The notes under the pieces are model-generated. The model saw nothing but the letters and a program-made list of their open reading frames with translations, was not told the DNA's origin and ran no database searches. Source: Psammoneis japonica (lineage: Eukaryota). From it: 64,000 nt of DNA. Shown here piece after piece: positions 4,898-64,000 of this stretch. The stretch spans positions 620,001 through 684,000 of the forward strand of contig QPGO01000017.1 of the NCBI GenBank assembly GCA_008632985.1. Reading direction: 5' to 3'. A program made the translations under genes and the position numbers. The first letter of the stretch is position 1, and the number at the start of each line of letters is the position of its first letter.

Positions 4898-7039
4898 TAT
4901 TTGTTGTCATATGGAGTGGTGATTCATTCGCAGAGAAACATGTCGCTGCACTCATCGCAAGCAGCCCTGAAACTTCATTTTCTGTACTCACTTGGTGCCG
5001 TACTTTTTCAACTTGTCGATGGTCCTCGCACCGTCAACATGGTCGGTCCGCAAGTAGTAGTGTAGGGTAGAAAAAGTTGCTATTCTAGTAACCAGATTGT
5101 ATCAGGGAAAAACAGTGTTGCTTACATAGGATACATTGTGATAGCACTGTGCCGGTACATTAGATTAAGATGGAATAGTTCATTCCGCGGTTTTTGTTCG
5201 GAAACCCACACGGTAAGTTGCGTTGCGCTTCACAGGATGAAAAACGCTACGCTTGAATTGCTGCAGAGGCTTCCACATAGATCATTCACAAAATTAAGTG
5301 TATTCCATACAGCGAACTGAATTGACCTTACTCACTCGATACTCGCTACAGATAACGCCACATCGTCGTCCTTATCCCAGAGAAAGAAAAGCGGCGTCGA
5401 TAGAGCTCTGCTTTTTCCACTTACTCCTCATGGCAGAGAATATATCATTGTGATATAGTTGAAATAATACGCAACACTCAATGGGTCTGCAGATTTCACA
5501 TGCTCTGCAGCATTTGCTTCCTCGAGAGCCAAACCCTTCCATTCTCGACTCTTGGCGAAGTTTACCAATAATGTTGGCGTCAGCAGTCACAATGTATTGA
5601 CGTCAAAGTCTTTCGGGTCGGAGCATACAGACACGGTCAATGCTGAACATCCCTGCTTGCAAGCGGGAGCAAGCGTACCGATTCGAACTATCTATACAAA
5701 TCGAGTATAGCTACAACTTTCCGACTTTCCGCTGCCTTTCAACAACAACGGACCTTCTCTGCTGCAGCACATTCTTCTTCTTACCACCGTGGAAGAGTAT
5801 TATCTCCCGCCATACTACAGGAAAATTGAACATCCAGAGCCTTGTCAAAACAAGGCTTGCTCTTCCTTTCAATCGATTCGGTGTGCTCGGACATCGTTCT
5901 GACACCTGCATTAGTCAACCCTTGCTTACTGATTCGAGACATGTTGCGCAGAAGAGTGCAATGAGTTGGCACAGAAGTCTCTCACCATCTCAGTGCTCGA
6001 CCCAACACAGAAACTCTAAATCTGATGACGTCGGGAGGGTCGTTTAGGTCATGGTGCTGTAGACAGCGGGAAATCCAGCCCAATGATCGCTGGGCCTCCC
6101 CTGAATTGTGCCATCCGCGCCCACGGTTCCCATCTCATTTCGAAAAATGCCACACGTCTATCTTGTAACGACAACAAGCGTAGGTTGGAAGCAATCGTCA
6201 AGGGAAATAGCTTTTCACGAGCGCTCTTGTTGATGTGCCAACACTGCCCCTTCTCCCGTAAGAGGCTTTCTTGTTTCACGCCGTCATCTGACCAAGTCAA
6301 CTTGCACTGTAGTCTCACTTTTGCAATGTGCACCAAGCTTGGCTGCGCAGACCCGGCGATAACAATTCGAAACATAGGACAGTAATTGCACCGTTGTTTG
6401 TTCAACTTTGCCTTGCAACATGCCGCACACGGTGGGTCATCAACTGCATGTCCTCCAAGCGGCGATTTCCACTGGCTGGAGATTTTATCTTTTCGCTCCA
6501 GAGCAACCGACTCGTCTCTTCTTAAAAATGTGCTGTCTGCTGTCTAGCTAGAAGAATCCGTAATGGGCACTGAAGCTCCCGCATCATTTTCTTTTAAAGA
6601 CCTTTGTGCGAACTGCCTCATTTAAGACCAGATGTTTCGAACGTCGACACAAACGCTGCTCGGTGGTGGTGTGATGCGTGATTGTCGGAGGGATTGAGCT
6701 CGAATTATCGCAAAAGCACGATCAACGTTCATTCCGCGCTTTTTCTGCTGTTTCACCTGACGCCAACTGGCCCAGCTCTGAGCAACAGTTTCTTTTGCAG
6801 CCGAACGACGAATTTGTAAGATCGAAGAATCGGCAGGTGCGTGTGCAGTGTGTTGTCGGAGACAGCTGGCTTGAAACGAATAAGACGTCATGGTCGATTT
6901 TCGGGCTGGGGGTGATGCGATGTGATGTGCGGCCTTCGAGCGTCCGTCAGGCGGCGTGGAGCGTCCGACCTGCCTCCGTAAAATCCGGGTATCTTTCTGC
7001 TGAGGTGTGCGCATTTTGTGCGCATTCTGTGCGCATTTT

Positions 7040-7971
7040 GTGCGCAGGCCTTGCACGCGGCATTTTGATGTGTTTCAGGACAAACCTGTTGTCATGCGTG
7101 GGACTCCTTCTTCAGCTGGAAGACAACAGTTCTTAAATGCAGACAATTTGTGACAGACACACTCATTTGTTCAGCTTGTTGCGATCAGCAGCTGGCTGGG
7201 CTTGGCCTCGCAGCCTTGCTGCCTGGGTGGCCGCAGCTGGCAGCTGTGCACTTCCCCCTGGGTGTCTTGCCTTGAAGCTCTTCACAAGCTTTTTTTTGAC
7301 CAAGCTCTTCACAATGTTTCCTGGTTTTGGTGCTCATCTTCTGTGCTGCAGAGTGCGGTGCTGCCGTGCTCTTCACCTTTCAGAGGGCGACGGGCTCCAG
7401 CCCCAGGTGGGACTTTTTGTGACATTTGGCCCGCAGAATTCTGCGTGCGAGCTCCGCATTACAAGAATTTAATTAATGGACATTTTTGTCTTCAACATCA
7501 AATGAATGACCAAGTTTGTGGTGCAATTGTGGCCATTGCCACTTGACGTTTTCGGCAATCCGCCTGCCCTGCGCCATTCTCAAGACATTTGCAAATGGCG
7601 CAGAAGAAAAAAATGTCAAAAGTTGTTGGACGGATCGCTCAATGAGTGCACCACAAAATGACACAAAATTTCAGAAAAGTCACGTGCCTTTCCACGTGCA
7701 CAAAATGCAGTGCGATCCAAAAAACCATCGATGTCACAGCTCAGCAGCACGAGGTCCCACCTGGAGCTGGAGCGCGTCGGGCTGCCGGCAGCCCTCGTGC
7801 AGTTGGGGGCTGGAGACGCAGAGACCAGCCTCACGCTGAAGAGCAGCACAGCCAAGCTTGTGGGGCCAATGCTTTCTGTCTTTGTTCAGTCTCATGTGGC
7901 ACCTCTTTCCCAAATGCTGTGCTTGGTGACGTCCTCGGCAAGTGCAAATTTTTTGGCACCTGGGTTGCCAG
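7040..7971 (-). mobile_element. PIF/Harbinger-like (DDE_Tnp_4) transposase remnant, interrupted by a MITE and truncated by an LTR
   Basis: Homologous to 51905-52990; GKCTAASCGHPG corresponds to the K-x-IAD-x-GY motif. Confidence 0.5.
7389..7778 (+). mobile_element. MITE, GAC...GTC family, 390 bp, 4-bp TSD GGGC
   Basis: TIRs gacgggctccagccccaggtgggac / gtcccacctggagctggagcgcgtc. Empty site visible in the duplicate at ~24961 (agagggctgcc). Confidence 0.9.
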
Positions 7972-8164
7972 TGACAGAGTGCCAAAGGTGAGAGGTGACA
8001 GAGGCACAAAGACTCCCCAGAGTGCCAGGACTGTGACAACATGAGTGCTGGCAGATGAGAAAGTGAGAAGCAGATCTCAGAGAGATCTGCTCGTCCATCT
8101 GGATGGTCCGGTCATCATCCGTGTGCAGTCTGTCCATCACACGATGTGTGTGGGCAGGCTGACA
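7972..8164 (-). repeat. LTR, Copia family 1 (variant b), 3' LTR
   Basis: Reverse complement matches the LTRs at 32392 and 39397. PPT adjacent at 8165-8173. Confidence 0.9.
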
Positions 8165-10364
8165 CCATCCCCTGATCTGCAACATCTCAACACAGAGAGT
8201 GGTGCAGATCAAAACAAAGAACAGGGATGATGCAAACAGACTGGACAACAAAACACAAAGTGTCCAGGCTCAACTCGCAATTGCAAAGGAACCACACAGC
8301 ACAGGGCAATGGCATCTCCAAAAAGTCTCCAAAGGCAGCTGGGCGCATGTGCTGATCCAACGGAGTCTTCGACAAAAAACATCAAAGGCAGTTTCCAACA
8401 AATCTTGAAGACAAATCGAGTCTTGCACCAAAGAAATAAATTTGTCAATCAACAAGCAATCGATCGCAGAAAGACATTCTGGCGAGTCACACTGTCGCCA
8501 AATCTCATCGGAAGGGATGGGGCCAGAAAATGCAAACCCACCATGGCGGACAGTGCGGCAATGAAGAAGCAACAGCAATCCACCTGACAAAACAACACTT
8601 CTGCCACCAGATGTGTTGCCCCTGAAGAACATGTTGGACAAACAAAATGCATCGTGTGGTCGCTCAACATCAGAAGAACAGTGACGCATCGCAGGTGAGC
8701 ATCGCAAGGCCTTCAAATGATGGTCGTCAAGTGAGGTTTCTTGATTGAATGTGACATTCTCAACAGCCTGATGTGCTTCCTCTGTGCCATGGGAATCCCT
8801 CCCCTGATCTAAAAATGTGGGGTCATTGTCGGGGACAGTCGACAGGTCGGGACCACCAGGAAAAACACCACTCGACACCACAGTGGTCTTGACAGCGAAG
8901 GAAGAAGGCAACATGCTGGAAGAGTTGGTGTGATTGTCAATCATGCACAGTTCTTCTGCACAATGTTGCTCCCTCCTTTGACAAGAAAATGAAGGATCAT
9001 CATCAGCGATGGTGGACAGGTCCAGAGTGCCATGAAAAGCACAAATGGACGCGACAACGGTCCTGACAACGGAGGAAAGAGACGGCACAGCAGAAGGTGG
9101 TAAGACTCGGTGGCCCTCTTTCACAACACCTTCTGTTGGTCTTGTTTGGACAATGGAAGGAATGGCGGCATCGCACATCCAAAATCAACAATGGCCGAGC
9201 CAAAAATCCGAGGACGAAGTAACCTGACAACCACCAACAGAGCTCTGGCTGCGTCCACAGGTGTCATTCGCATCATGCGACGGTGCCACAGAGGCAGCAA
9301 ACAGCTCATGGGTGACCTTGGTGACACAGCATGATCCATCCAATGGATTCAAGCGAGCCCCATTGCACGAAACAACAGGATTGCCAGACACAAAAAACTT
9401 TGGGGTCTTGAGCAGGCAAGCGTGGAGGTCGGCGGGAAATGCCACCAATCCGGCAGACAATGCAAGTGAACCGGTGCCAACAATTGCAGATGGCTCACTC
9501 GCAGGAACCACAACAGACACAGGAGACTTGACATGTGCCGCAGTGGCATTCATGGGATCAATCCGAGCACCCGTTGAGATTGCACCTTCATCTTGAGTCA
9601 CATCTGCATCATCTTGGCTAGAGGACTCGGTGGCGGCGTCCATCTTGGAATCTTCAAATGCATGATTAGTCAAAGACGAGGCCAGAGGTGAGGAAAATGG
9701 CAAAGAGGCTTTCTCACATCCGTCATGGTCACTGGAAGGTGAAGGGTCTGGATGGCGTTGATCCTTTGCATGAGGAGGTCCGTCCATGCCCTCATCGAAG
9801 TGTGCATTCATGTCCATCTTGATCTGAGAGTTTTCAGGATCCTGCCACAGGACGTGCTTGTTGGCATCAGATGAACAACCAAGGAAAATGCCCTTCTTGG
9901 GGACGGGGTGCAACTTGGAGTGACGGGAACCGGGTTCTCAAACCCAAACATGAGAACCAATTTCAATCTCCCCAGTGGCCTTGATGTCAGGAGTCATGTC
10001 CTGATCCACAGACACAACAGGTGCAGTGGACTCTCCAGAAGACAATTTGGCAGGCGCAATGGATGATGCAGACCCCGATGAGGAGCCACATGACACATCA
10101 ACAAGATCATGAATGCTTGTAGAGGGAAGAGGTGCATTCATTGTTGGAAGAGGCACAAGAGCTCCTTGTTTTGCATGTGGCACACAATTGGACGGAAGAT
10201 GCATGTCAGCACCTCCAGGATGCATGGTTGCATTCGCATGGAGTGGCGCAGTCGCTGATGAAGGACCACGCCCAGTCGTGACGGAATTAGAGACGCCAAT
10301 CAACGAGGAATTCATGCTCGTCGCTGGATGAGGTAGATGTTCTTGTGGAGGTTGACACTGGGGT

Positions 10365-10759
10365 GACGCGTTCCAGCCCCAGGTGGGAGCTCGTAGCACT
10401 GACGTGTGACACCAACAATTTTTGTCATCCGTCGCATGTTTCGCACGCAGATTTCTGCGTGTGACATTTAAAAAAATTGTCCAGACTCGCTGTTTTGCAA
10501 AGCCCCAGATGTTTTACATGACGAATTTATAGAAACAACAATGCGCCAGTTACATTCGTCAATGTCTGAAGAATGTAACTGGCCAAGTAAAAAATGATGT
10601 GCTTCAATCATGGGCAAGTTTGTGCGTTCGCAAAATTGCTTCATTTTCTGTTGGCGATCATTGACATTTTAACAACCGCACAATTTTGCTGCGGAGCTCG
10701 CACGTGGAAGTCTGCGGGCCCAATGTCACACGGATTCCCACCTGTGTCTGGAACGCGTC
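10365..10759 (-). mobile_element. MITE, GAC...GTC family, 395 bp, TSD GGGT
   Basis: gggt[gacgcgttccag...ctggaacgcgtc]gggt. Confidence 0.9.
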
Positions 10760-10808
10760 GGGTGCATCACATGTGGGAGTGCCTCCACAATGCTTTGCAG
10801 TTGTTGAA

Positions 10809-12004
10809 CTTGGTTTGGTTTTGCCCATTTGGGGATTCCCCAAAATGGCCAGGGTGAGGGGGAGTTGCCTTGCCCTTTTGGGGGAATCCGGGAAATGAGG
10901 GTAATTTTGCGGGAAGGAACGCCTGACAGGGCTCAGGGGAGGGGAACAAAAACGAATGGAATGCGGCAATGTACGGTGAACACAGTTAGGCGGGTGTGCT
11001 TTTATCACCATGACGACCGAGCGAGCGAGCGCTCGAGCGAGCGACGCGACACGATGCAACGACAATGATTGCATCGACACATCGACACAAAGCAGCCCCT
11101 TGTGGAAGAGTGAGGAAAGAAGAAACTTTGCCATTAGATCAGCCACATTAATGTTGCTTGTGCGAGGTTCCATTTTTGCCTTGTCCTTTGCTCTGGAGCC
11201 CTTGTGGTTTGCATTTGTGACCACGCGACACAAGAAGGAATGCATGGCACACTGTGCTCTGCAAACAAGATAGTTCAAAGGAAAGAATGAGCATGAACAC
11301 TCAATCTGACATGTTTTTTATTGGCCCAGTGAGGTTCCACTTTTGCCTGAGCCTTCACTTTAGACGCCTCATGGTTTGCATTTGCAGTTGGACGACAACA
11401 GTGATTCCAAACGATCCACTTCATTCTGAACACAAGATGTGTCGACTGGAAAAACAAGCAAGACCATTCAATCCACCACATTTTCATTCGCCACAGACAG
11501 TTCTGCTTTTGCCTTGGACTTTGCCACAGATGCCACATGGCTTGCATGTTTGTGGCCGCACGACAAAAGAACAAGTGCAACGATCTGTCAATGCACCATT
11601 TTTTTCTAAACACAATCTGTCAAGCTTCCACTCATTTTGTGTTTTATGCTGTCGATCGCAATGTTGTTCACTGGATTGACTGGTGTCATCATTGTTTGAC
11701 AAAAGCCGTCATAAAGGGGATGCGAGCCGCTCCATGGCGTGTTGCCCATTTTTGTTGCGATTGGTTGATTTCAATTCTGATGTGTGGTTCCGCATGTGCC
11801 GGCACGCAGAACACGTGGAAATGTACGAGAGGGGAAGCATGGGGAATTGCCGATGTATAATTTTTTATTTGTGCATTGAGCACATGCATGATGAAGGGCA
11901 ATTTGTGTCGATTCCCCGGGAATTCACCCTTTCCGTAGAAAAACAGGGTAAAAGGTGGCAATCCCGGGGAATTTTGTTCAAAAACACGGTAAAACCAAAC
12001 CAAG
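10809..12004. mobile_element. ~1.2-kb non-autonomous TIR DNA transposon
   Basis: TIRs cttggtttggtttt / aaaaccaaaccaag flanked by duplicated ttgttgaa (8 bp, or 10 bp if the ends are shifted inward by one). Interrupts the host ORF cleanly. Confidence 0.8.
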
Positions 12005-12808
12005 TTGTTGAACATGGTTGTGTGTGACGTGACGTGACGTCATGCGACGTCGTTGTGAAATGGTCCGTGCACATCAATGAAGGATTCATGCTCGATGACT
12101 GTGGAGCCATGTGAGCTTGTTTGGATGCATGTGGGGAAAGAGAAAACTCTTTCCAATCTCCATAATTCCATGTCATGTCAAGATTGAAGTGCACATGGTG
12201 CGTTGACACAAGAACACAGAGAAATTGCTCGTGTTGCTGAAGATTCAACTTGATCATGGTTGAGAGACCTTCAGGCGTCAAACAAATCGCGTGAGACTTG
12301 GCAGGGTCCACAACGCAAAAACAAGCTTCATCCACAATTGTCTTGATGGACTGCATGTCCACAGGATCCACCGTGTAAGGTGGAATAGCTTGATTTGTGA
12401 GAAACTCACGGAACAAGTCAACAAAATTCTTCCCAGGCCGAGTGTGTTCTGGATCGTCGAAGAATGGATCCAGATCCAATGTGGCATCCGCATGCAGCCC
12501 ATTCAGGGACGTGTGGACGTGCGGCAGAGTGACATGTGCTTGGAACTCACAACAGATCTCTGTGTGACAGACTTGGGAGTGGCCTTTGTGAGGTCGGGAG
12601 ACGCCATGGTTTTACTTCGTGAAAACATTTTTGGTCATGCACGAGTGGAAATCTGGTGTGTTTCTACGAGCGTGAAAAATGCTGGGAAAGCGAGACAAAA
12701 ATCCTTCCGGGAACAAGAGATGAGGCTTGCTTGATCGGCTCACAAAACAAATGAATCAAAACGGAAAGCTTGGCGCAGAGGTCTGTGGCACAGCGCAAGG
12801 CCACAACC

Positions 12809-12979
12809 TGACAGAACACCAAAGGCAAGAGGTGACAGAGGCACAAAGACTCCTCAAAGCACCAGGACTGTGATGACACGAGTGCTGGTAGATGAGAAAG
12901 TCTGCTCGTCTATCTGGATGGTCCGGTCATCATCCATGTGCAGTCTGTCCATCATGCAACATGTGTGGGTGGGCTGACA
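12809..12979 (-). repeat. Shared central LTR (variant b)
   Basis: PPT on one side and PBS-like motif on the other. Confidence 0.9.
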
Positions 12980-13158
12980 CCCTCCCCTGATCTGTGATGT
13001 CTCAACACAGAGAGCAGTGCAGATCAAACCAAAGAACAGGGATGATGTGAGGAAAAAGCAGAGAGACCAGACACAGGACACGAGAAGTGTCCATGCCCAA
13101 TGCGCAATCAAACAAAGGGGCAATGCGCAGCAGGGAGGCCACCGCAGAAGAAAAAGTC

Positions 13159-16100
13159 TCAACAGCAGTGTCCCATCATGCGTCGAGCGTGGCGGGTGTG
13201 CAGCACCCAGCCAAGAGCCTTGGCAAGGTCATCGCCAGGGTTGATGATGCCAGGGACATGTCTTGTGACAATCTTGCCCACTTCCTTCCATTCTTGGATC
13301 ACAAAAAACTGGATCTCAATGTGACGGGAGCGCTTGGTTGGAATCGAATGACTGATGATCTTGATCGCCGATTCGTTGTCAATGTGCAACGGGGTTGGCT
13401 TTGTCTGAGGAAAGCCTGGGTCTTGCAGGACGTGACAAAGGCTAAGAACATGCTTGGCAGTGGTGCCAGCAGCCCAAAAATTTTTTTAGCTTCCGTAGAA
13501 CTCGCAGCGGTCACCGATTGGGTCTTGCACTGAAAGGACACAGCAGCACGGCTAACATGCAAGCACAGCCGGTCGCAGAGCGATGGTTGCGGAGGTCATT
13601 GCCATGCGCAGTGTCCAAGAAAGCAATGAGTTGATGGTCACACTCAGGACAAGGGAACAGTGGTAAGGTCGGGTCAGGAGTGAGACGTTCGAAGGGGCAC
13701 GCGGGCAGTTTTGGGTCTCGGGTGGGCTTCTTGCAGTTCAATTCCCAATGCTTGGTGCGCCCAAGGTGCTTGCAGACTCCTTTGAGCGCATCACAGTGAA
13801 CCATGGCGGGACAGGTAGAGAACTTGGAGAGGGCAGTGACAGCACACCCAATGTCCAAACGGCACACAACGTGCGCATGCAACAATTCACCAAGTGGAGT
13901 GCGGCATCCAAATCCAGCGGCTTGTTGTAACTCTGCATGTTCCGGAGTTCCTTCAGCTGGACCAACAGCAGTGTAGAGTTTGCGAACAGAGTTGACCGTC
14001 AGTGGAGCAGCCTTGCGTCATCGTCGAGTTCCTCGTCCGTCGGTGTTGACCAACCATGCGAGGCACAAGCCCGATCTATGTGGCTGTGAACAGCGACACC
14101 AATGGAGTCATCATGTTGATGAATGTCCACACCATTGGACTCTTCAATCACACCAAGACACTTGAAAGGCGGAGATGTTTCCGATTCCAGCTGAAGAGCT
14201 TTGCCGATCTTGTCATAAATCTTGATTGCAATGGACTCTTCAGGACACGCAAGGGAGAAATCATCAACCTGACAGAGGAGCAAGAGCTTGTGTCCTTCAA
14301 AGGTGGCAGAATGGATGCATTTGTCATGAGCAGTGTTGCAAAAAAGCAGGTTCACATCAGACAAAATGCCGTTGATGTGCGTCTCCCAGAGCACACCGGC
14401 TTCTGGGTGTCCTTGGAGTGCATGTTGCATCAGAAGCACCACGCTCCCATCCAAGTCAATGCCAAACTGAGCCTTGCACCAGGTCGTGCATGCTTCGTCT
14501 GTGGCAACACAGACAGGATGCGACGGTCGTGGAGAGTGTGCACAGGCATCACGAGCATCCCCACCAAAGACAGGGTAGCTCACAGTCGCAGCAAGGGCAA
14601 AAAACATGCATTGGACAGGTTGCTTGACACAGGATGAATGCGTCGAGTAGAGACGATGTAGTGTCAACGCAGCACGGGGGGATCCATCGCAGCATTGTTG
14701 AGGCGACGTGTGCCATCATGTTTGAGATCATGTTGCCAATGCGGACAAAGGACAATGGCATCCTTGGGACGTTTGATTGGTGCACCAAACATCCCCAACT
14801 CATGAAATTGGTCAAGTTGTTTGAATTCACCGGCATGCCATTCAGGCCATGCATCCAACTTCTTGAGACAATGGTGAGTGAAAGCACCCAACGCCTGTTC
14901 CGGCATGGGATGAAACAGCACAGAGATTTGCTGCACCATTGTCACAGTCGACATAGAACAGCGGAGGGACATCATCATCGTCCGCATCAGAGAAATCAAT
15001 GTCGGGGTGACGGATGGCGGCAACAGCACGCATGTCAGCATTGGCAATTTCCGGGACGTGCTCATCATCAGGGTCAGGGGTCGGTGCACAGACATTGTGT
15101 TCCATCAGAGCATGTTGTAGAGCTTTAGAGTCCAACTGACGTTCCGGTGCAAATTCGATTTCAAAATGATTCTTGCCAGAATCACAGACTTGTTGAAAAC
15201 GTTTGACAGCCTCTTCTGCCGTAAAGATGGGATGGTCATTGATCAATGCGACATGCGCGCCCTTGATCTTGTTACGAGTGGCCTTTAAAGAAGAGAAAAG
15301 ATGCGCAGCAGGATAACCACGTTTAATGTCAGAAACAAACACTCGTCGATAGAGGTCATCCGCATGCAAAGATGTTCCAAACGTTGAATCAGGAAACGGT
15401 CCCTTCATCGCACGCGCAATGGTCTTGGCAAAAGGGTTCCCATGAAAGTGGAACTCGTCTGTCATTGATTCTTCAGTCTTGGCAGGCAGAGCAGCGCCAT
15501 CTTGAGTGCGTTCCAAGTGAACCACATTCGGGGGAAGAGAGTCACGGGGTGGGTCATTCATTCCTTCATCAAAACGGACATGCTTGGCAAGATTGACACA
15601 AAAAGTCTCGGTGTCACACCAGAGCATGTTCTTGGTGGTGTCTGGAAGACAGCCCAAGAAAATGCCTTTGCGAGAGACCGATCGAAATTTGGCTGGGCGG
15701 TGGTTCGAAGCACGCACCCAAACTCGACAACCAAATGTACGAAAGTTCTTGAAATCATCCTTTCGACCAGTGGCAAGGGTGATCGGAGCAGCAGTCTGTC
15801 CACGGGATGGCATGGCATTGTCAATCCGAACAAAATGATGAAAAGCACATGGCCAGAATTTGATGGTAAATCGGCACCAATGAGCATTGCCCAAATGGCA
15901 TCAGTGACAGTCAAGTGACTGCGTTCCACTGGGCCACTCTGGTTTGAAGCATCTTTTCCCCTGGGATGAATGCACAGTGGAAGTCATCCTCGAAAAGTCG
16001 TTGAACCTCTGGATTTTGATGCAATTCACCTCCTTGATCCACAAAGACACACTTGTCGGGACATTTTGGCAAGTGCTCTTCCAGAAAGTGGCGAAGCCAA

Positions 16101-50222: not shown

Positions 50223-50460
50223 CGAAAGAAATCCGATGTGTCGGATTTAGTTAGAGTGCTGTTGTTAGAGTGCTGTTGGTGACGGCTGGTGCTGAGCCAA
50301 CCGTTGTGATGTGTCATCGGAGGGAAGCGTTGGATTTCCCTCCAATGGCGCTCACTTGTTGCGAGTGGTTGTAACAGGCCCAAGAGTGTCTTTGGATCGT
50401 CAGATTGTTGTCACACCAGTGCTGTGAGCAGCTGAGCCATTCGGCAGCTGGATTTGCTCG
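50223..50460 (+). repeat. 3' LTR, family 2
   Basis: Follows the PPT; DIRS sequence resumes at 50461. Confidence 0.9.
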
Positions 50461-55330: not shown

Positions 55331-57866
55331 ACGTGGTCATCTTTGCATTCAACAAAACCAGCCAAACCCTGATGTCATGAGGAAAAAGAAATTTTTTGTG
55401 CTGGAATCTCAAGGGGACTCACATTGTGCTCAAATTTCAAGTCGTTTGAGTCAGAATGAAATCAAAGATTCCTTTTGGAGTTGTTGCAACTGCTGATTGA
55501 CAGCAAAGAATTGTTGCAATGGTGTCAACTGAGCTGTCTTCAATGCAGTGTTCTTTTCCTGATGCCCCCATTAAAACTCAACAAGAGCATCAGTGAAATT
55601 TTGAGTGTGCACTCTGCAGAAGTTGTTGTCAGCAAAGCTGCTCAATGATGCTGAACACAGCAAAACATTTGTTGACATTGTTCCTTGGTTTTCAGGATTT
55701 GGGGGCACCAAACAGCCTGAAAAAAACAAGAGCATTGAACCAAAATTGTGGCTGTGCATTTTGTGGGCGGAGCATCTCATGTCAATGTCACTTGAGTTGA
55801 CAAGTGGCATGAAATGATGCCATCATCAGTGGTGTGTTATGCTCATCTCGTTGAGTTGATTTGTGATGTGAAACATTGCAGTGTGAAGACCTGCAGCACA
55901 TCATTTGTGCAGATTTTTGCACTGCGCTTGCTTGCAAAAAAGCACAGCAAAGCCAAAACAGCTCATGAGTGTGGCTTCTTTGCTGTGTTCACTGATGTCA
56001 TCTCAAAAGTGGTGCACGCCAGCATGACATGGTGAGCGCAAAGGCCGCAGCCTTCACTCGTGATCTGTTGCTCCAGTTGTTCAAGTTGATGACCACCCCT
56101 GAGCAGGGGGGTTCTTGTGTCAGTTGCCTCGGGTGTGCAGTGCTTGGTTGGTTGCATGCAATGGCTCACATTGTCTGTGCAAATGGGCAGAGCACTTGTG
56201 CACTCACAACACAGATGCTTGGATCTTGGCACATGGGCATTTTCTGTCTCTTTGGATTTTCTGAGAACCCCCACGCACCATGACAACTCCACACACTGTC
56301 AAACCATTTTGCCGCTCAGAATCTAAATCTGCCACCCAAACACTGCAGCTCATTGATGCTGCTCACTTGACAGGCTGTGGCATTGCACTCTCCTCCTTCC
56401 TCAGAAAGCAGGGGCACAGACAATTGCTGCAAGCTCCACATGCAAACAGCACGCTGCTGGTTTGAGGGAAATCAACCAGTTTTTGCAAAACATTGAGCTG
56501 GTGAGATGAGCTGAGTGATTGTGATGGTTTTTGCACAAGCTTTGATGCCAAATTTCTCACTCAATGTTTGTCTCCCCCTTGAAGGCAACTCATGATCACT
56601 TGACATCAAGCAGACACTGGATGACAAGTGCTGCAAGGGCAGAGACAAAGACACAAGGTGAGCTCATGATTGAGATGCATGACTTCCATCTTGATGACTT
56701 CCTTCCTCAGAAGATGTCCTCACTGCTGTCTTTTGACTCCTCTTTGCCACAATCATTCTCATGGATTTGTTGCAACAGACACAGGTGGTTGTGCAATGAC
56801 AACATGGATGGTTGGTGCAAACACTGCCAAAGTCATTGCACTCAATTCAATGTGAATGACAGATGCTGCAGCCTGCACTTTGCCCAAACTGTGCCAAAGC
56901 TGCTGTCTTTGTGTGCTGTGCTGTGGATGATTCAGAATGTTGGAATGGCTTGAAAAATGGAAAATGATGCAAGATCAGCCATCAGCATGAGAAGACAGTT
57001 TGCTTTTTGACAGTCCTTTTGGCACGTTGTTGTTGACTCTTCTCACAAACAGAGCTGACATCATGCAAGTTTCATCAAAACGACTCTAAAACTCAATCAT
57101 CCACGATGCACTCACAGCCATCCCTGTTTTGGACTGTGTTTTGAGTCTCCCTGACAAGCCCCAATGTTTTGAGTGCCCCTGGAGTGCGGTTGCATCATTT
57201 TGTTCCCACAGCACGCACTTTGCAGAAAATTGTGACAGTCAAAAGACAAAGTGCCGTGTGATTGCAAGCCAACCACAACCATGAACAACATGCCAAGTTG
57301 GCAAAAAGTCAACAATGCATTGCAAACATTTTGACCAAACAAGCTTGTTGATTGGGAACAAGTGAAAGGCATCTCAGCAGGTGCACTTGGTGGTGACAAC
57401 AACGTGAAAACAATGACAATGTCACAGACCCAATGACAGACCACACAAGATGATCAATTTGCCTTTCAAGCTGCAACAAAGCACAGACAAAATCTTCAGC
57501 AAGCACTCGAATGGCACAAAATGAGAAAACACAAAAAGAGCTTGACATGGCAACATTGTTGACCACTCGAATGTCAAGTGTGCTGCACCACAATCAACTC
57601 ACAAGTCAAGCCATGCAACCATGTGGCATGTGCAGCAAACAAAGCACCCCAGGAAATCAAGCCAATGTGTCAAAAATCTTTGTGACAATGGCACAAGAAG
57701 ATCCCCCTGCATGACACATCATTGCCATTGTCTGTTGTTTTGCAAACACCAGCTGTGCCAAACAGCAGATTGGCGGCACACAAGACCCTGATGTCCACTG
57801 TTTTGTTGCAACACTCAGCAATTGTCAACTCTCTTTTGCCCCTGGCAAGCCACTTGCCATTCAATT

Positions 57867-58247
57867 GGTGTTTCCTGAATGTGCATTTTGGTCGGACCAA
57901 ATTGGCATTTTGGTCGGACCAAATTTGTTGACAAATTTGATGCTCGCGACCAAAATGATTTTGTTTCCCGAAAACGTCATTTTGGTTTGGAGAATTTGGC
58001 GTGCTTTTGGTGGAAATCTTCTGTTGGAAAACGCGCATGTCAACATGCCGTGCAAATTTTTTTTGTAGAAGCTGCATCAGCATTGTTTGTGTAGAAATGC
58101 ACATGAAAGGAATTTGGTCGAGATTTCGCAAATGACAATTTGGTTGACCAAATTGATTTGGTCAGTCTGGCAATTTGGTCAACAAAAGCATTTTGGTTTG
58201 GCCAAAATGCCAATTTGGTCCAACCAAAATGCACATTGGGAAACACC
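57867..58247. mobile_element. ~380-bp MITE with long TIRs and reiterated TTTTGGTCGGACCAAA motifs
   Basis: ggtgtttcctgaatgtgcattttggtcggaccaaattggc mirrored by gccaatttggtccaaccaaaatgcacattgggaaacacc. TSD not resolved. Confidence 0.75.
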
Positions 58248-58742
58248 GTTTGCTCTTTTTTGGGCTCATGCTGCTTCTTGTGGCTCTTGTTCTTTGGTGG
58301 CATGGTTGTCTTGTGAAAGATGAGGGAGCAGTGGCCTCAAGTTGTGCTTCTCTGTCATTTTGGCCATGTCAGCAGCAGCTTGAAAAATTGTCAAGATGAT
58401 GAAATGGTTTGACGGTGCACACTGCAGAGTTGTCACAGCACAGGGGCCTCTGTGCAAACTCATTTCCAGGTCATTTCATGTGTGAGCATTGGGGCAGTTG
58501 ATGGGTGCCAAATGCTGCAATTGTGCCCAATGTGATGAAAATGACACACAAGCACACCAAACTCCCTTTTTCAGGATTTGCCCCTTCTTGGCATGTGCAA
58601 GTCACATGGTGGCTGAATGTTGTGCAGAGGCCCCTGCCAAGGGGCAGTCAATGACAATGACTTCTTTTGTGTGCGAGAAGGTGTGTTGGTGGACACATCA
58701 AAAATGTGTCCCTTGCCAGCAGTGGAACCTTCTGTGGCACCC

Positions 58743-58752
58743 CTGCTGCAGC

Positions 58753-58784
<32 letters not shown>

Positions 58785-58790
58785 ATGATG
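58743..58790. repeat. Compound (CTG)n(ATG)n microsatellite
   Basis: Seen directly. Confidence 0.9.
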
Positions 58791-59379
58791 CTTTCCTGCA
58801 TTGTCTGCAGGCTGTCTGCAGCAATGCTGATCCCGCAGAAGCATGCACTGGAAACATGACTCCTGGCACAAGACCTGCATCAGGCTGCAGGAGATCCATG
58901 TGACTGAGACCAACATGACTGGCCATTGTGCAAGTGACTCACTTTGCACAAAGTGTCTGCGTGGGATGTGTGCAGCACCGAGCATCACTGGTTCTGCACA
59001 AGGACTCAAGCTCTGCACATCTTGCTGTTGCACACACATGTGCTCTGCTCAAACAGCCTTGCTGTGACTGAGTGCTTGGATCCCATTTTTGCATGGGGCA
59101 CCACCTCCTCTTGACACACAATGGACACAAGACAGACTCTGTCCACAAATGCAGTTGCTGACAGACAGCTGGACCATCACAATTTGTTTGGTCCCCACAA
59201 GAGCCAATGCAAGGTGCTGGGTTGGCTCAATCAAATCTCAAAACAAGAGCAAAACACACACAACCCAAGTTAAGGCCACTGAGATGCACTTGGTCTGAGA
59301 GGTGAGAACACATGGGCAACACACCACACGTGTCCGGCCTTGGCATCGGGACCTGCCAAAACAAGTTGAAGCACACGTT

Positions 59380-62300
59380 CCACCTTTTCTGACCAGCAGC
59401 CACAAACTTCATCAAAATGTCCACCAAATTTTTTTTTCTGATTCTTAAGATGCCAGCTGCTGCTGCTTCTCAAACCATGTGTTGTGCTGTGCTTCTTGTT
59501 GTGCAAAACTGACTCCAGAATGCTGACATTCTTCACAACTCCACTGTTGTCACAAAATTTGTTTGCAGGGTCTTCAGTCAGCACACCAAGCAACATCAGC
59601 AATTTGCATCATCACAGCACCACAGTCATCAACTCTTTTGCAATCTGCAACACAGCTGTTTGCTCCCAAACGTTGCTCACTCTGCCATGTTCTGTTTCTC
59701 TTGCTGAGCCAAATGATTGGTGCATTTTGCACAAAAATCAAAACTCTGCTGTGCAGCCTTCATGCAACAACATTTCCAGCATGATTTGCATCACCAAAAC
59801 AACAGACACTGACTGGATTTTCACAGGGTTTGGGCATCTTTGGTGGCAAAACCTCCTCCATGTCACCACCAAACTCAGCCCAATCCACGTTGCTGTCAAA
59901 AAGACACTCCCATCTGTCTTTGGAGCTCTGCATTTGATCTCTTGACAACCAACCACACTCAAATTCTTGCCCTCTCTTGTCTGTTGCAGAGTGCAACCTT
60001 CTTCTTCATTCCATGCTGCCATGACCTGATTCATTTCTTTGTTGACAGCCTTCTTCCAAAAATCAGTCCCCGTCTGTTCATCAATTTGAAAAGTCCCTTA
60101 GCACTTTTTGGCAGCCCAATTCCAAACTTGTGAGCAGTGCACCAATGTCTCAACTTGACTTTGATTTCTCTTTCACAGAGCTTGGAGAACCCACCAAGCA
60201 ACAGCTGGTTCATCAACTGTCCAGTTTACAACTGCACAATCATCCAACTCAATTGGTTTGATGCTTTCAAACCTCAGAGTTTTGCCCATTCCATTGACCC
60301 ATCCTTCTGTTGAACCAACAACTCCCAACCTTGAGCAGTCACCTTGTGTCTTTCTTGTCCACTCTTGGCCTTGATCTTGCCATCTGAGATGTGGGAATTG
60401 CTGAGTTGTCACTTTGATGGTCTTGAATCTCCTCCAAGACAGAACAATGATGACTGGCATTGTCCACTTGCTCAAACACATTCTCAGCAATGATGTTGGC
60501 AGCGTGCTTGTCTGCAGTGCCATTGACACAGGCAACCTCACATTTGCAAGTGTTGGCAATGGGGTTGGAGTGTCCAGAGAAAATTGGCTGACCATTTGGA
60601 CCTCAAGCATGCTTGGTTGCAGCTCCTTTTTGCTCTGCATTGGTGCCAACATAAAAATGACCTCCACACCCAAATGCTTGCCAATTGCTTTTTTGTCACC
60701 ATCATCCAGTCTTTTGTCTGACAACACATCATCACACTCATCATCAGCTGGTGCAAGGTTGCTCTTGCAGGAAACACCAGGATTCTCATCCACAAGCAAT
60801 GACATCATCTAACACCAAAGCAAGCTGGCCCTCCTCAGGATCAAGCTGAAACTTTGCATCATCCAGCCCACTCTCAAGTTTGGCATTGAATTCTTTGATC
60901 TTCTTCTTGATGTTGGGGTGCAAGCAATCATCATGGATCATGTGCTCAACTGAAGGTCTTGAAACCAATTTTGCACTTTCAGTGGTCAACCAGCAGCACA
61001 CATCTGAGCCAACCTTGTGAGACACACCAAGCCATCATCCCAATCTCCTTGGGTCATTGGCAATGTTGGGTTCATTGGGTCAATCTTGCCACCAAACAAG
61101 ATCATAAATTCAAAATCTAGATGTTCCTTGATCTCAAGTGTGTTTGTCCTGTGACCTCTTTGCAATGAGCATTTTGTCCTTTCTGCCTGACATGCGCTCA
61201 AAACTTGAAGCCAGGTCCATCCATGCAGTGCAACAACAAGCAATCTGTGCTTCTTTCACTGAGTTGCATGAATCCCAAAATGGGCTGACCTCATGTGTCA
61301 TGTTTGACAACTTCATTGGCTTCAACTTGCTCCAGCACAACAAGCATCAGCATGAGTGCCACATTCATTGTTTGCATGATGACCAGGTTCCATCATGCAT
61401 TTGCTCAAATTTAATGCAATGATGGATCAAACAGCTCTCTTTGAGACAACAGCAATGTCTTTTTGTGCACAAAACCGCTCACAATTCTTTGGATGGGGTT
61501 GCGTCAACACAACAAACAAACAAGACAACACACACATCACCCAAAACAAGTGTGTCATCAACAACGTTGACACCCCACATCATCAGATGCAAGAACAGGC
61601 TCCACAGCCAAAAGCAAAACCATTTCAACCACCCTTGTTGCCACATCCTCTTCCAGGCACTCAGTCATTGGCGCAAGTCTCAGAATCATCCTTCAACTCA
61701 ACTTGAGCCCTTGCCTCTTGAATGTTGCATTCTTTGCAATTTCCTTGATGACCTCCACCATGACCTCCACCATGACCTTGAGTCCTTTCACATGCTTGAA
61801 CCACATGTGCACAACTGCTGTTGAGCTGTTGATGATCCCCACTCATTGAGTGAAAAGCTGTGCATTGGATCAGAGACATCAACTCCATTGACAGAATTGG
61901 TGCATTGGCTTTGATCACCCCTTCTAAATCCACGTCCACTTCAAGCACCTCCGTTGGACTGTCCCTGTTCACTGTGACCACAACCTGGACCTCTGCAAGT
62001 GATGTCAGAAATTTTCATCTTAAAAGACAATGAGCCTTGAGGAGTTGAGCTTCTCCGTGCAACCAAGACACTTGAGATGAGAAATGAGCACAAGCCCCTG
62101 AGAAGTCTCTTGCATGTGTCTCACTGATGACTGCCTTGCAAGCCACAAGCTCTGGCTCAATTGTCTGAGCACAATGCAACAATGCTTCAACCTTCTGACC
62201 ATGTTCCAAACATTTCAAGTCAGGACACTTGTCAAGGGCAGCAAATGTTGCAAGCCTTTCAGCAAGTCTCTTGAATGGATGCACCATTTTCTTCTTGCAA

Positions 62301-63050
62301 TGAGCTGTTTTGACAATGCTTTTGGCCAAAGCAGTGTGCTTGCTTGACTCTCCTTGGCCGTTGCAATGACTGGCTCAAGACCAAAAAGTGAGATGACCAT
62401 TCTCTTTGGCATCAAACTCTAAAATCCAAGCCCAGCCAGGGGCATTGACAAGGTGCCCTTTGATCACATGATGCACTTGACAATTGTCTCCTTGAAGGCA
62501 GACCCTGTGAGTGGCAGCTGATGCCTGCAATGCTCTTCTTTGTTCACAAAATCATTGGGTGCAACGTGAGCATGACAAATGCATCATAAAGGTGCCTTCA
62601 AAGCACCCAACTTTTGTGACAACAAGTTTAAGACCAAATCCTTGTGTGGGTCACAATCTTCAGGCTCAAACTTTTCCAAGTCACTGTGCAAAATGGTTGA
62701 ACTCTCCCTCTCCTTTTCAACAAGCTTCAGCTCACCAGCAGTTGCCAAAGCATTTGCAGTCACCTTGGCAGTTGTCAACCGTTGACCATGATGCTGCCTG
62801 TCATGAATCCACCACACAAGCACCTGAGTGTGTTTGATTTTAACAGCTCCAAGGTTTGCCCAACCTTCCACATTGGTTGAACAAGTGCTGCAAAGTGCAA
62901 AGTGCTTCTCTTCTTTTAAACTTTCCTTCAGGTGTGGTTTTGTCATGGCAACCCAATTTGGGATCATGGATGTTGAGTGGCTTGCATGCTTGTTCACCAA
63001 TTCCAACAGAGCATTGTGATCCCCAGCCAGATGCTCTTGGCATTCATCAT
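59380..63050 (-). mobile_element. Old, internally deleted Copia related to family 2
   Basis: gag-like LVWWIHD; HLDFEF; SHKVGSDVCCW; HKFGIGLPKS; DANHAGN; FCDNSGVVKN. RT core largely absent. Confidence 0.8.
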
Positions 63051-63059
63051 AAATGGCAG

Positions 63060-64000
63060 TGAGTTCAGCCTCAGCCTGTCACCTCAGTGAGGACTTCCTT
63101 GACTCCGCATCATGGCCATGCATTGCCACATTGTGTTCCTCCCACAACTCCCACCAGGATTTCCAAATGTGAGTGCCAATCTGCCCTGACCACACTGGCA
63201 GGGCATTGGCTTCACATTGGCATTGGTCTGGAAGGCCAGATTGATTGTTTGAGATGTGTCTCTTGACAAGCATTCGAAGGTTTGAAAAATCTCCCATTGA
63301 AAATTTGGCGCCATCCAACAGAGTTCTGATCTCACCACAGAGGTCAAAGCATGGGCACAATGTCCATGTCACATGACATCACATTCTGAAACCAGGCCTC
63401 AAGTGCTTGCAAAAGGAAATCTTGCAAGGGAGGCATTGCATCAATCTCATCACAGCATTTGCAGAGACCGTGCAGAAATTTGCAATGCCAGGGCTTGTCA
63501 TCTGGACACCGGAGAATGTGGTCTTGATCCTCCATTGGGTGTTCACATGCCAGACAGTGGTCAGGCCACATGAAATTGCACCAGCAGCCAGCAATTTCAT
63601 TTGCAGGAAGAAGGCAATGAATGAGCTTGATGGTGGTGTTGCTTTGAGAAGCAACAGACAAGAGTGGCATGGACCGCCCAGTCAATCTCATCTGTGACAG
63701 ACTCATCCCAGTCATTGTGCTCCCAGATGTAATCCAGCATGGCAGGGGGGGGGCTGTGGCTGTGCAATGAATTACAGGCTTGCATCCAGCTGTGACTGTG
63801 CCACCCAACAGGTTCAAGCATGTCTGACAATGTGGAAGTGGGGTGACGGTCTTTGTGTCAAAGGTTCATTGTCCCTGAAATTGACCAGCCAATTTGGCAT
63901 TGAGCAGAAGAGAAGAAGCAGGCGTGACTTTGTCTTGATGTCCTTTAACCCACTTGGCAATTGGAGCCTTTGCTGGAGTTGACAAGTCCAGGAGAGTGTC
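63060..64000 (-). mobile_element. Non-LTR retrotransposon (LINE) ORF2 C-terminal remnant
   Basis: EIDW; CLACEHPMEDQDHILRC zinc finger; WWELWEEHN..HG. Confidence 0.7.

Follow-up and report, generated by a model that had tools for sequence, protein, structure and literature searches.

Organization of the window

The window, that is, the whole 64,000-nucleotide stretch analyzed, consists of Copia-type retrotransposons of two families, two islands of normal TpA content, and long unclassified stretches. Its features are listed below with dinucleotide observed/expected ratios (O/E); a dot stands for no strand.

1..3000, strand (.): old unclassified TA- and CpG-poor sequence; ORFs without Pfam match
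3001..7000, strand (.): TA-normal island 1; TpA O/E 0.30-0.72, CpG 0.94-1.09
4228-4863: 117-nt tandem repeat within island 1
7972..12980, minus strand: copy C, a diverged, truncated family-1-like Copia; ends match copy B at 72-83%
12804..19983, minus strand: decayed full-length copy A of Copia family 1; 5' LTR at 19787-19983
21001..25000, strand (.): TA-normal island 2, duplicate of island 1; TpA O/E 0.25-0.61, CpG 0.88-1.09
25001..32390, strand (.): unclassified TA-poor repeats; TpA O/E 0.00-0.14; no Pfam match
32391..39597, plus strand: copy B of Copia family 1, with LTRs at 32391-32588 and at 39396-39593
39598..43794, strand (.): single-copy TA- and CpG-poor sequence; depth about 63; near-identical contigs in run X1
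43795..50461, plus strand: young Copia family 2 (F2); LTRs 43795-44035 and 50221-50461; RVT_2 (Pfam)
46755-47298: N gap inside F2
50462..64000, strand (.): oldest unclassified stretch; TpA O/E 0.01-0.13, CpG 0.04-0.33, TpG/CpA 1.75-2.02

Copies A and B are 85.3 to 85.7% identical (85.3% across 7,224 nt), and copy B encodes the Pfam domains gag_pre-integrs, SH3_retrovirus, and RVT_2. Copy C adjoins copy A, with an LTR region common to both, and harbors an SH3_retrovirus domain at 9185-9937 (Pfam); its TpA O/E is 0.03-0.24. For both Copia families, the eukaryote relatives that bear a name were without exception pennate diatoms (Nitzschia inconspicua, Cylindrotheca fusiformis, and Fragilaria crotonensis), and no paralogue above 65% identity was found in the protein collection. 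None of the 93 further ORFs of at least 110 amino acids matched a Pfam domain; only Copia-type elements were recognizable in the window, and the Pfam search of its ORFs revealed no host gene. Among the unclassified repeats, the one at about 29.3-31.3 kb is present at very high copy number, with a word depth of up to 24,049 in run X1 compared to about 63 for single-copy sequence.

TpA is depleted in all but two islands

Over the whole window, the O/E ratio was 0.14 for TpA, 0.52 for CpG, 1.65 for TpG, and 1.64 for CpA, with neither ApA (1.17) nor TpC (1.05) being depleted. We counted 575 TpA steps, 255 in the islands and 320 elsewhere, against about 4,035 expected by our own arithmetic from the base composition. 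TpA O/E was 0.00-0.26 in all 1-kb bins except those at 3-7 kb and 21-25 kb; in these two intervals it reached 0.25-0.72, with CpG at 0.88-1.09. The initial annotation had placed the near-absence of TpA at 7000..64000; the overall ratio bears this out, but a TA-normal island lies inside these limits at 21-25 kb, and positions 1-3000 are depleted as well. That annotation had also extended the near-absence to every class of transposon, but among recognizable elements it is documented for the Copia type alone. The three successive kilobases of 1..3000 gave TpA O/E values of 0.19, 0.02, and 0.06 and CpG values of 0.43, 0.10, and 0.17, and the single-copy sequence at 39598..43794 gave 0.02-0.11 for TpA, 0.11-0.42 for CpG, and 1.76-2.04 for TpG/CpA. 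Copy A (12980-19990) retains 53 TpA and 282 CpG next to 714 TpG and 647 CpA. At 50462..64000, pyrimidine-purine steps are now almost all TG or CA, and TGA accounts for 779 of the 853 stop triplets on both strands of 50001-64000.

The contrast between transposons and genes rests on the two TA-normal islands, which contain no recognizable gene. These islands are duplicates of each other (4888-7388 and 22445-24967, 97.2% identity), and within 4888-6600 we found 72 TA/TA pairs compared to 6 pairs of TA with TG or CA. Repetition alone is no trigger, since the two copies of a 2.5-kb duplication (97 to 98.6% identity) still share TA at 72 sites along the first 1.7 kb. Logan contigs from run X1 reproduced the single-copy TA-poor sequence at 40434-43797, differing at 6 of 3,380 bases, an agreement that may not be independent of the assembly because X1 is possibly its own sample.

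The ancestral dinucleotide is TpA

We compared F2 with 120 homologues (58 to 65% identical), 70% or more of which carry tyrosine at 25 columns. F2 has kept tyrosine at 5 of these columns and displays histidine at 10, cysteine at 8, and phenylalanine at 2; arginine was kept at 37 of 40 columns and histidine at 11 of 12. For family 1, the 74 homologues of at least 900 amino acids among the 120 listed yielded 10 tyrosine columns, at which copy B has 6 C, 3 H, and 1 F and copy A has 7 C, 2 H, and 1 F, tyrosine being retained in neither. The two copies differ, C versus H, at 5 of 9 conserved-tyrosine columns, and arginine columns had become Cys or His at 2 of 29 positions in copy B and 4 of 29 in copy A. 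The peptide pairs reported in the initial annotation (QPCQG/QPHQG and others) were all found, 8 of 8, with one form per sister copy, as were the five family-2 motifs (NACL, HSSVV, CQELIG, SIACH, and LRHKL), and its proposal that these sites were originally tyrosine (TAY) is supported by the homologues of both families.

Replacements at conserved F2 residues (n = 103) could be reached by one TA>TG/CA step in 37 cases, by one CpG step in 4, by another single step in 34, and by several steps in 28. First-position A>G replacements followed a T in 14 of 14 cases (I>V, 4; T>A, 4; S>G, 3; R>G, 2; N>D, 1), only 2 A:T>G:C single steps lay outside TpA, and only 1 A>G single step came after A.

The F2 LTR pair is 92.5% identical, and 15 of its 18 differing bases fall at TA-type sites, compared to 1 difference in 117 non-YR sites; 11 CpG pairs are intact and 3 TA pairs are left. 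The copy B LTRs are 86.4% identical with 11 CA/TG-discordant sites. However, the 5' LTR of copy B disagrees with its own 3' LTR at 11 of 16 sites, and this 3' LTR agrees with the 5' LTR of copy A at 13 of 17 sites. Judged from these patterns, copy B is probably a recombinant, making it unsafe to treat its LTRs as the two LTRs of one insertion. Among the five LTRs, two CA/TG-discordant sites are still TA in one LTR. Where the origin of a discordant LTR site was readable, 2 of 4 showed CG in other copies, and some discordances, as read from these alleles, do stem from CpG. Overall, the direction of the change is TA>TG/CA, not CpG decay.

A single-rate model of TA origin nevertheless predicts only 15.1 discordances between copies A and B, compared to the 148 observed. 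This shortfall requires rate heterogeneity, with T-A-Y sites that change quickly alongside TpA that is slow to change or recently formed.

T-A-pyrimidine is the preferred context

The polarized spectrum and the motif derive from metagenome relatives and not from the window's own families. TpA O/E ranged from 0.81 down to 0.01 across 80 metagenome loci. Compared with 12 TA-normal relatives, locus L024 has kept only 1 of 120 majority-TA columns (62 became TG, 46 CA, and 11 other), while keeping 53 of 77 CG, 251 of 302 AA, and 265 of 310 GA columns. This spectrum and the F2 replacement steps uphold the earlier claim of A:T>G:C change at TpA. In four partly mutated loci, TpA was altered most often in TAC (63/149) and as often in TAT (59/153), followed by TAA (14/64) and, lowest, TAG (28/170), and the base at -2 had no effect. 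The window's surviving TpA steps fit the same T-A-pyrimidine preference: RTAY makes up 24 of 320 outside the islands versus 71 of 255 within them, and YTAR makes up 108 of 320 versus 37 of 255.

The change is strand symmetric, follows copying, and precedes CpG loss

At the 148 sites discordant between copies A and B, copy A carries TG at 75 and CA at 73, in 71 runs compared to 75 ± 6 expected. Equal use of the strands and the lack of runs indicate a change at the DNA level, after copying. Action on both strands and after integration had been anticipated in the initial annotation, the former being confirmed by the 75:73 split and the timing after copying by the differences at TA-type sites between LTRs and between sister copies. 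F2 has a CpG O/E of 0.76-1.28 alongside a TpA O/E of 0.09-0.26, and the oldest parts of the window are low in both (TpA 0.01-0.06, CpG 0.04-0.2), thus indicating that TpA loss precedes CpG loss. Taken together, these data establish the direction of the change, its sequence context, the strand symmetry, the timing after copying, and the order relative to CpG decay.

Interpretation and alternative explanations

The best explanation, to which we assign a probability of about 0.75, is a DNA-level A:T>G:C hypermutation of TpA in retrotransposon copies already laid down and in older repeats. Such a process would have converted A:T to G:C specifically at TpA once the copies and the surrounding older repeats were in place, hitting either strand with equal probability, site by site, with a preference for T-A-pyrimidine, and would have run on until 85 to 99% of TpA was lost. 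In coding sequence, it would turn TAY tyrosine codons into Cys or His, remove TAA and TAG, and thereby ruin the encoded proteins. CpG would afterwards give way to TpG/CpA in a separate and slower process of 5-methylcytosine-type decay, and this later decay would leave nearly every pyrimidine-purine step in the oldest parts as TG or CA. A chromatin-targeted deaminase may be the agent, turning DNA adenine into hypoxanthine, which is read as G, and the role of the process could be genome defense, although an A-targeted and a T-targeted lesion would look alike in sequence alone.

The T-targeted version supposes that a TET/JBP-type dioxygenase puts 5-hydroxymethyluracil (5hmU) on the T of TpA in transposon chromatin and that mispairing or faulty repair then changes T to C. 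Its outcome would be the same, TA>CA plus TA>TG from the other strand, and the motif, when written around the T, would become purine-T-A. To our knowledge, 5hmU has no record as a clean T>C mutagen. In dinoflagellates, 5hmU is described as enriched in transposons, where it aids their silencing, and as replacing T preferentially in TA and TC (PMC11572971). However, with TC a stated context, TpC in the window is not depleted (O/E 1.05), and the X1 contigs total 141 Mb (about 60-fold word depth), unlike a typical dinoflagellate. We consider this route unlikely.

CpG methylation decay as the only cause would mean that the Cys/His sites were once CGY (Arg), that CA and TG arose by two independent 5-methylcytosine deaminations, and that TpA is low for other reasons. 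CpG is indeed depleted (O/E 0.52, down to 0.04), copies A and B show 208 CG versus TG/CA pairs, and two LTR sites are of CpG origin. Nevertheless, the homologues carry Tyr and not Arg at the Cys/His sites, family 2 has a CpG O/E of about 1 with most of its TpA already lost, and CpG decay cannot remove TpA. It also predicts only 0.0, 0.1, and 32.6 CA/TG discordances for the F2 LTR pair, the copy B LTR pair, and copies A and B, compared to 5, 11, and 148 observed. On the basis of the tyrosine columns, the bin composition, and the discordances, we rejected it as sole cause, a reading that now seems very improbable; it remains as the second, slower process.

It is just as improbable that ADAR-like A-to-I editing of retrotransposon transcripts before reverse transcription was responsible, although a U 5' of the edited A is favored (PMC10661471; also argued in 10.64898/2026.01.13.699255). 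Editing of sense genomic RNA would yield sense-strand TA>TG only, not a 75:73 split, and the LTRs of one insertion should be identical, whereas differences are seen between them at TA-type sites. Depletion is just as strong in single-copy and unclassified sequence. Moreover, the editing hot spot is given as 5'-UAG (PMC10661471), but TAG is the lowest context here (28/170), and the Bigelowiella natans targets are integrated DNA viruses (10.64898/2026.01.13.699255).

Pol-eta-like error-prone repair focused on heterochromatin, one of the mechanisms suggested in the initial annotation, has a similarly slim chance. Its WA>WG motif is known from somatic hypermutation, and A>G at an A preceded by T fits it. 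The data contradict this proposal at the other half of the motif: ApA O/E is 1.17, L024 kept AA at 251 of 302 columns having lost 119 of 120 TpA, and family 2 shows a single A>G step after A. Finally, a sequencing or assembly artefact, or TA avoidance built in before insertion, has nothing specific in its favor beyond X1 perhaps being the assembly's own data, and is hardly conceivable in view of the TA-normal islands in the same assembly, the agreement of short-read-derived contigs, the decayed copies differing in the product carried (TG or CA), and the same signature in separately assembled metagenome contigs beside TA-normal copies of the same family.

To return to hypermutation of TpA in DNA, we propose tentatively, and with rather more doubt than confidence, that a chromatin-guided double-stranded DNA adenine deaminase acting at T-A-pyrimidine constitutes a RIP-like defense beyond chlorarachniophytes, probably in diatoms, and is common in nature. 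If so, the transposons in environmental assemblies would span the full range from unaltered copies to copies devoid of TpA.

Comparison with known systems

The initial annotation knew of no described equivalent, but a 2026 preprint describes this very TpA>TpG/CpA hypermutation, which was measured in mutation-accumulation lines of B. natans and affects viral inserts (Mettrop et al. 2026, 10.64898/2026.01.13.699255). There, two viral inserts acquired 231 new mutations, of which 230 were A>G or T>C, each of them at a TpA step, at a rate about 1000-fold over background and in only some lines; the inserts, NCLDV and virophage, still contain TpA (Rho 0.45 for NCLDV), TpA-poor CDS are enriched in reverse-transcriptase and DDE Pfam families, and an ADAT2-type adenine deaminase is proposed (10.64898/2026.01.13.699255). 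In both systems A:T>G:C is confined to TpA (here, 37 fitting F2 steps versus 2 outside), both TpG and CpA are made (here, 75:73 between copies, 8 Cys and 10 His in F2, and 62/46 in L024), and the long-term footprint is low TpA with high CpA plus TpG. Hypermutation in B. natans is reported as confined to foreign DNA; here, Copia elements and old repeats are depleted and two islands without a recognizable gene are not. Mutation in B. natans was measured live; what the LTR retrotransposons and old repeats preserve here is a fossil trace that has reached saturation (O/E 0.01-0.26). The process is of the same kind in both cases, here saturated in diatom-like LTR retrotransposons. The main text of the preprint contains neither LTR nor flank-context analysis, and our data contribute the preference for T-A-Y, a test of strand symmetry, and the placing of TpA loss before CpG decay.

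Fungal RIP is likewise a dinucleotide-specific transition hypermutation that wrecks repeated and mobile DNA where it lies, with a strong dinucleotide footprint as the result. RIP, however, converts C to T, chiefly CpA to TpA, and TpA rises (PMC2621366), whereas here TpA is consumed and CpA/TpG are made. We rejected RIP itself, the ratios of 0.14 for TpA, 1.64 for CpA, and 1.65 for TpG being the opposite footprint.

Among deaminases, TadA and ADAT2-ADAT3 act on A34 after the conserved U33 of tRNA. T-A-C is also the most favored context here (63/149), but their natural substrate is a tRNA loop, and TAT is altered as frequently as TAC in our loci. In TadA-derived adenine base editors, activity on DNA is engineered. 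APOBEC3 converts C to U on single-stranded cDNA in strand-coordinated clusters, unlike the strand-symmetric A:T>G:C change in DNA without runs found here. ADAR and APOBEC3 resemble our case in leaving deaminase-made transition clusters in mobile elements or viruses and in being viewed as innate defense. ADAR, for its part, differs in acting on double-stranded RNA with a 5'-UAG hot spot, and the context of TadA/ADAT2 is given as 5'-ACG (both PMC10661471). Amphioxus ADAT2, the sole enzyme of its type reported to act on DNA for which a context is on record, prefers GAA and TCG in hairpin single-stranded DNA, not TpA (PMC10354150).

5-Methylcytosine decay of CpG is active here too and likewise yields TpG and CpA (CpG O/E 0.04-0.2 in the oldest parts), but it is slower and separable, as seen in F2 (TpA 0.09-0.26, CpG 0.76-1.28). 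TpA>TpG/CpA hypermutation is a cousin of RIP running in the opposite direction, first reported in 2026 in one alga (10.64898/2026.01.13.699255) and here saturated in transposons with diatom relatives.

Elements in the window and their relatives

The recognisable elements in the window were of the Copia type only, as judged by Pfam:

7972-12980, Copia copy C, resembling family 1, diverged and truncated, adjoining copy A
12804-19983, minus strand, Copia family 1 copy A, 85.3-85.7% identical to copy B
32391-39597, plus strand, Copia family 1 copy B, 85.3-85.7% identical to copy A
43795-50461, Copia family 2 (F2), younger, with 241-nt LTRs that are 92.5% identical and an N gap at 46755-47298

None of the 93 further ORFs of at least 110 aa had a Pfam match, and among 18 larger ORFs of the window the non-Copia ones gave nothing usable. 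The initial annotation had described TpA as nearly absent from every TE class, a breadth that is not confirmable because the 93 ORFs outside Copia lack a Pfam match. By-eye comparison gave no matching target-site duplication for F2. Copies A and C are arranged head to tail, apparently with one LTR in common (12804-12980), as in the tandem LTR-element arrays that unequal recombination generates. Depth in sequencing run X1 gave an estimate of about 7-20 Copia copies per genome. In the same run, an unclassified repeat at about 29300-31300 reached a summed word depth of up to 24,049, compared to about 63 for single-copy sequence, which indicates several hundred copies per genome.

Among the matches listed, the relatives of the two Copia families that belong to named eukaryotes all came from pennate diatoms (Nitzschia inconspicua, Cylindrotheca fusiformis, and Fragilaria crotonensis), and no Copia paralogue above 65% identity was present in the protein collection. 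The most likely host would be a diatom, or some other alga whose elements resemble those of diatoms, and B. natans is improbable. Two Copia polyproteins of that collection (P0130 and P0142), publicly filed under a "Flammeovirgaceae bacterium" MAG, probably derive from eukaryotic DNA that ended up in the bin of a bacterial genome.

TpA is depleted outside two islands

At a G+C content of 49-50%, the window contains 575 TpA, versus about 4,035 expected arithmetically from base composition. The observed/expected ratios (O/E) over the window were 0.14 for TpA, 0.52 for CpG, 1.65 for TpG, and 1.64 for CpA. In 1-kb bins, TpA O/E was 0.00-0.26 throughout, save in two islands at 3-7 kb and 21-25 kb, where it was 0.25-0.72 and CpG O/E was 0.88-1.09. 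The low TpA first noticed in the initial annotation is thus confirmed, and the peptides that it quoted were all present (8 of 8 pairs and 5 of 5 F2 motifs). When the cluster thresholds of a preprint on Bigelowiella natans mutation-accumulation lines were applied, 48 of the 64 bins passed, and the qualifying bins formed runs of 10 and 14; a 5-window cluster is picked out as notable in the main text of that preprint (bioRxiv 10.64898/2026.01.13.699255).

Stop triplets were dominated by TGA on both strands (883 of 1,006 at 25001-44000 and 779 of 853 at 50001-64000, i.e., 88-91%), and TGA made up 102 of the 194 stop triplets of one island. This dominance in the TE blocks results from TpA loss followed by CpG decay and in turn accounts for the long false ORFs seen on either strand: the window holds 36 stop-free frames of at least 200 aa, counted on both strands and many of them overlapping one another. 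The process yields GC-richer sequence and very long false ORFs, by which gene finders and LTR-based dating are misled.

An assembly artefact was rejected as the source of the depletion. Contigs from X1, which is possibly the assembly's own sample and hence a weak counterargument, cover the window and differed from its single-copy TA-poor segment 40434-43797 by 6 letters in 3,380 bases; runs X2 and X3 contained next to none of the window's words. The DNA occurs in data from a single study, of 2019, and no RNA run is among those listed. The artefact reading is countered more strongly by the TA-normal islands in the same assembly and by a matching signature in separately assembled metagenome contigs.

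The islands hold a 2.5-kb segmental duplicate (4888-7388 and 22445-24967, 97.2% identity), the first 1.7 kb of which is without TA depletion and retains 72 TA/TA pairs, indicating that repetition alone is no trigger or that the duplicate is protected or recent. Past 7388 the matching segments of the two copies come in shuffled order with 81-94% identity, and because of this rearrangement the duplicate was dropped as a same-age control for comparing island with TA-poor flank. The first island also carries a 117-nt tandem repeat (4228-4863, 5-6 units, 74-96% alike), which reads as a 39-aa Ser/Asp-rich repeat and of which one unit recurs in the duplicate island (21924-22091).

The ancestral dinucleotide was TA

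An 894-aa part of the F2 pol was aligned with the 120 homologues listed, which are 58-65% identical to it. At the 25 columns with tyrosine in at least 70% of the homologues, F2 had Tyr at 5, His at 10, Cys at 8, and Phe at 2, while other residues were kept (Arg at 37 of 40 columns, His at 11 of 12, and Trp at 16 of 17). For family 1 we used those 74 of the 120 listed homologues with at least 900 aa and columns with Tyr in at least 60%. No Tyr was left at the 10 resulting columns, which read Cys 6, His 3, and Phe 1 in copy B and Cys 7, His 2, and Phe 1 in copy A, the two copies showing a Cys-versus-His mismatch at 5 of 9 Tyr columns. Arginine, conserved at 29 columns, was kept in 20 (copy B) and 19 (copy A); the losses went partly to Cys, His, Gln, and Trp, and these are CpG decay.

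F2 has replaced 103 conserved residues, of which 37 required a single TA>TG/CA step and only 4 a single CpG step, the remainder being other single steps (34) or several steps (28). All 14 first-position A>G replacements (I>V 4, T>A 4, S>G 3, R>G 2, and N>D 1) had T as the last base of the preceding codon, and only two A:T>G:C single steps lay outside TpA. The ancestral state is thus TA and not CG, and the proposed direction and context of change, A>G at TpA, were borne out by the Tyr columns of both families and by the F2 replacements.

Changes occurred after integration, on both strands, and ahead of CpG decay

Among the dinucleotide differences that separate copies A and B, CA against TG at one site was the most frequent (148 cases). 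Since neither can be inherited from the other, both copies must have altered a common TA or CG. CpG decay, estimated from intact and once-hit CpG pairs, predicted only 32.6 such discordances between A and B and 0.0 in the F2 LTR pair, where 5 were seen. The underlying single-rate model failed for a CG origin as well as for a TA origin and was retained only as proof that CpG decay is insufficient. In the five family-1 LTRs, 23 sites showed both CA and TG; at two of these TA survives in one LTR, and at two others CG is present.

The 18 bases that differ within the F2 LTR pair fell at TA-type sites (15), CpG (2), and elsewhere (1). Eleven CpG pairs were intact, 3 TA pairs were left, and 5 sites had TA versus TG/CA; non-YR (pyrimidine-purine) sites showed 1 difference in 117. 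These differences suggest, as a rough estimate from very few sites, a TpA rate on the order of a hundred times the background. In the LTR pair of copy B, 11 discordances were seen versus 0.1 predicted by CpG decay, and the LTR-pair logic is weakened there by the distribution of CA and TG across LTRs: the 5' LTR (32391-32588) has the opposite product from its own 3' LTR (39396-39593) at 11 of 16 sites, and this 3' LTR agrees with the 5' LTR of copy A (19787-19983) at 13 of 17 sites. Copy B probably arose by recombination or had an LTR exchanged.

At the 148 discordant sites, copy A had TG at 75 and CA at 73, in 71 runs versus 75 ± 6 expected. The two strands are thus equally likely targets and neighbouring sites are independent. 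The initial annotation had placed A>G on both strands after integration; the discordances between LTRs and between copies A and B uphold this timing. Equal strand use and the lack of runs rule out editing of sense RNA before reverse transcription and argue against a processive single-strand deaminase. Outside YR dinucleotides, copies A and B differ at 279 of 3,529 sites (7.9%). Of these differences, 238 are transitions and 41 transversions, a bias accounted for by neither TpA nor CpG changes.

CpG O/E was 0.76-1.28 in F2 (TpA 0.09-0.26), about 0.6-0.8 in family 1 (TpA 0.10-0.17), and 0.04-0.2 in the oldest blocks (TpA 0.01-0.06, TpG/CpA about 2.0). There are thus two processes, TpA loss being fast and first and CpG decay coming after.

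Environmental relatives reveal the target motif

When metagenome contigs were scanned with an alignment built from relatives of family 1, 80 loci were obtained, with TpA O/E mostly at 0.55-0.81 and a low tail (L024, 0.01; L035, 0.15; L014, 0.16; L064 and L074, 0.24; L059 and L065, 0.30; L077, 0.33). Over its whole 5,501 nt, L024 had a TpA O/E of 0.01 and a CpG O/E of 0.69, and its DNA is 79-83% identical to TA-normal loci across the entire 5.5 kb. Loci with the same contig-name prefix as L024 include TA-normal copies of the same family. We then polarised the changes at columns with at least 70% agreement among the references, taking 12 of the 80 loci as TA-normal references and 5 as targets and leaving the other 63 unused. 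L024 kept 1 of 120 TA columns (TG 62, CA 46, other 11), 53 of 77 CG, 251 of 302 AA, and 265 of 310 GA columns; TA was kept at 22 of 105 columns in L064, 40 of 75 in L065, 24 of 65 in L074, and 41 of 118 in L053. The polarised spectrum called for by the initial annotation was thus obtained, though for a sister family and not for the families of the window. Among 358 relatives of at least 150 aa, five had a Tyr content of 0.7% or less and carried Cys/His at Tyr columns.

In four partly mutated loci, each TpA being counted once per strand, events per opportunity were 63/149 for TAC, 59/153 for TAT, 14/64 for TAA, and 28/170 for TAG. T-A-pyrimidine (TAY; 122/302) was hit about twofold more often than T-A-purine (42/234; z of about 5.6, an approximate value as the two strands of a site are non-independent), and the base two before the A had no effect (0.29-0.33). 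The surviving TpA of the window agree with this preference: RTAY, favoured on both strands, accounted for 24 (ATAT for 0) and YTAR, disfavoured on both, for 108 of 320 TpA outside the islands, versus 71 and 37 of 255 within them. Tyrosine is wiped out because its codons are TAY.

Candidate mechanisms

These data show a TpA-specific A:T>G:C change in DNA that is symmetric, proceeds site by site, prefers T-A-Y, and is regional. We infer that adenine would be deaminated to hypoxanthine by a chromatin-guided deaminase. A thymine route through 5hmU is equally compatible with the sequence data; in dinoflagellates, 5hmU is written at TA in transposon chromatin (PMC11572971). Against this route, TpC is not depleted in the window. 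As for adenine deamination, the T-A-Y context fits enzymes of the TadA/ADAT2 type, whose target A34 comes after U33. The TadA/ADAT2 context is given as 5'-ACG in a review (PMC10661471). Amphioxus ADAT2, the sole DNA-active ADAT2 with a reported context as far as PMC10354150 goes, prefers GAA and TCG on hairpin ssDNA, which does not match TpA, and ADAT2 is thereby weak as a specific candidate. ADAR, with its UAG hot spot (PMC10661471), is a misfit to T-A-Y. Should the agent prove to be a natural deaminase of adenine in duplex DNA, the enzyme would represent a new class, with direct relevance to base editing.

Comparison with known self-mutating systems

Until a report of 2026, RIP was to our knowledge the one well-known process by which a cell destroys its own repeats through mutation, and the TpA system has the opposite chemistry, A:T>G:C. 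That report describes a second self-mutating system, in one alga and directed at viral inserts (bioRxiv 10.64898/2026.01.13.699255). According to its main text, 231 of 302 new point mutations in the B. natans lines lay in NCLDV and virophage inserts, and 230 of these 231 were A>G or T>C, each of them within a TpA, with a rate of about 6x10^-7 per site per generation and in some lines only; TpA-poor CDS were enriched in reverse-transcriptase and DDE domains, and an ADAT2 homologue was proposed as the agent (bioRxiv 10.64898/2026.01.13.699255). The earlier statement that no equivalent had been described is overtaken by this work, the only report of TpA-directed hypermutation found in the openly accessible papers and preprint main texts searched. 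Its main text is without LTR or flank analysis. This kind of process has thus been known since 2026, and the window adds properties absent from that report and open to testing, namely, the T-A-Y motif, strand symmetry without runs, and action ahead of CpG decay. The window shows a B. natans-type signature driven to completion in LTR retrotransposons and environmental relatives, apparently in another lineage than B. natans, which makes it probable that the process is neither rare nor confined to viruses.
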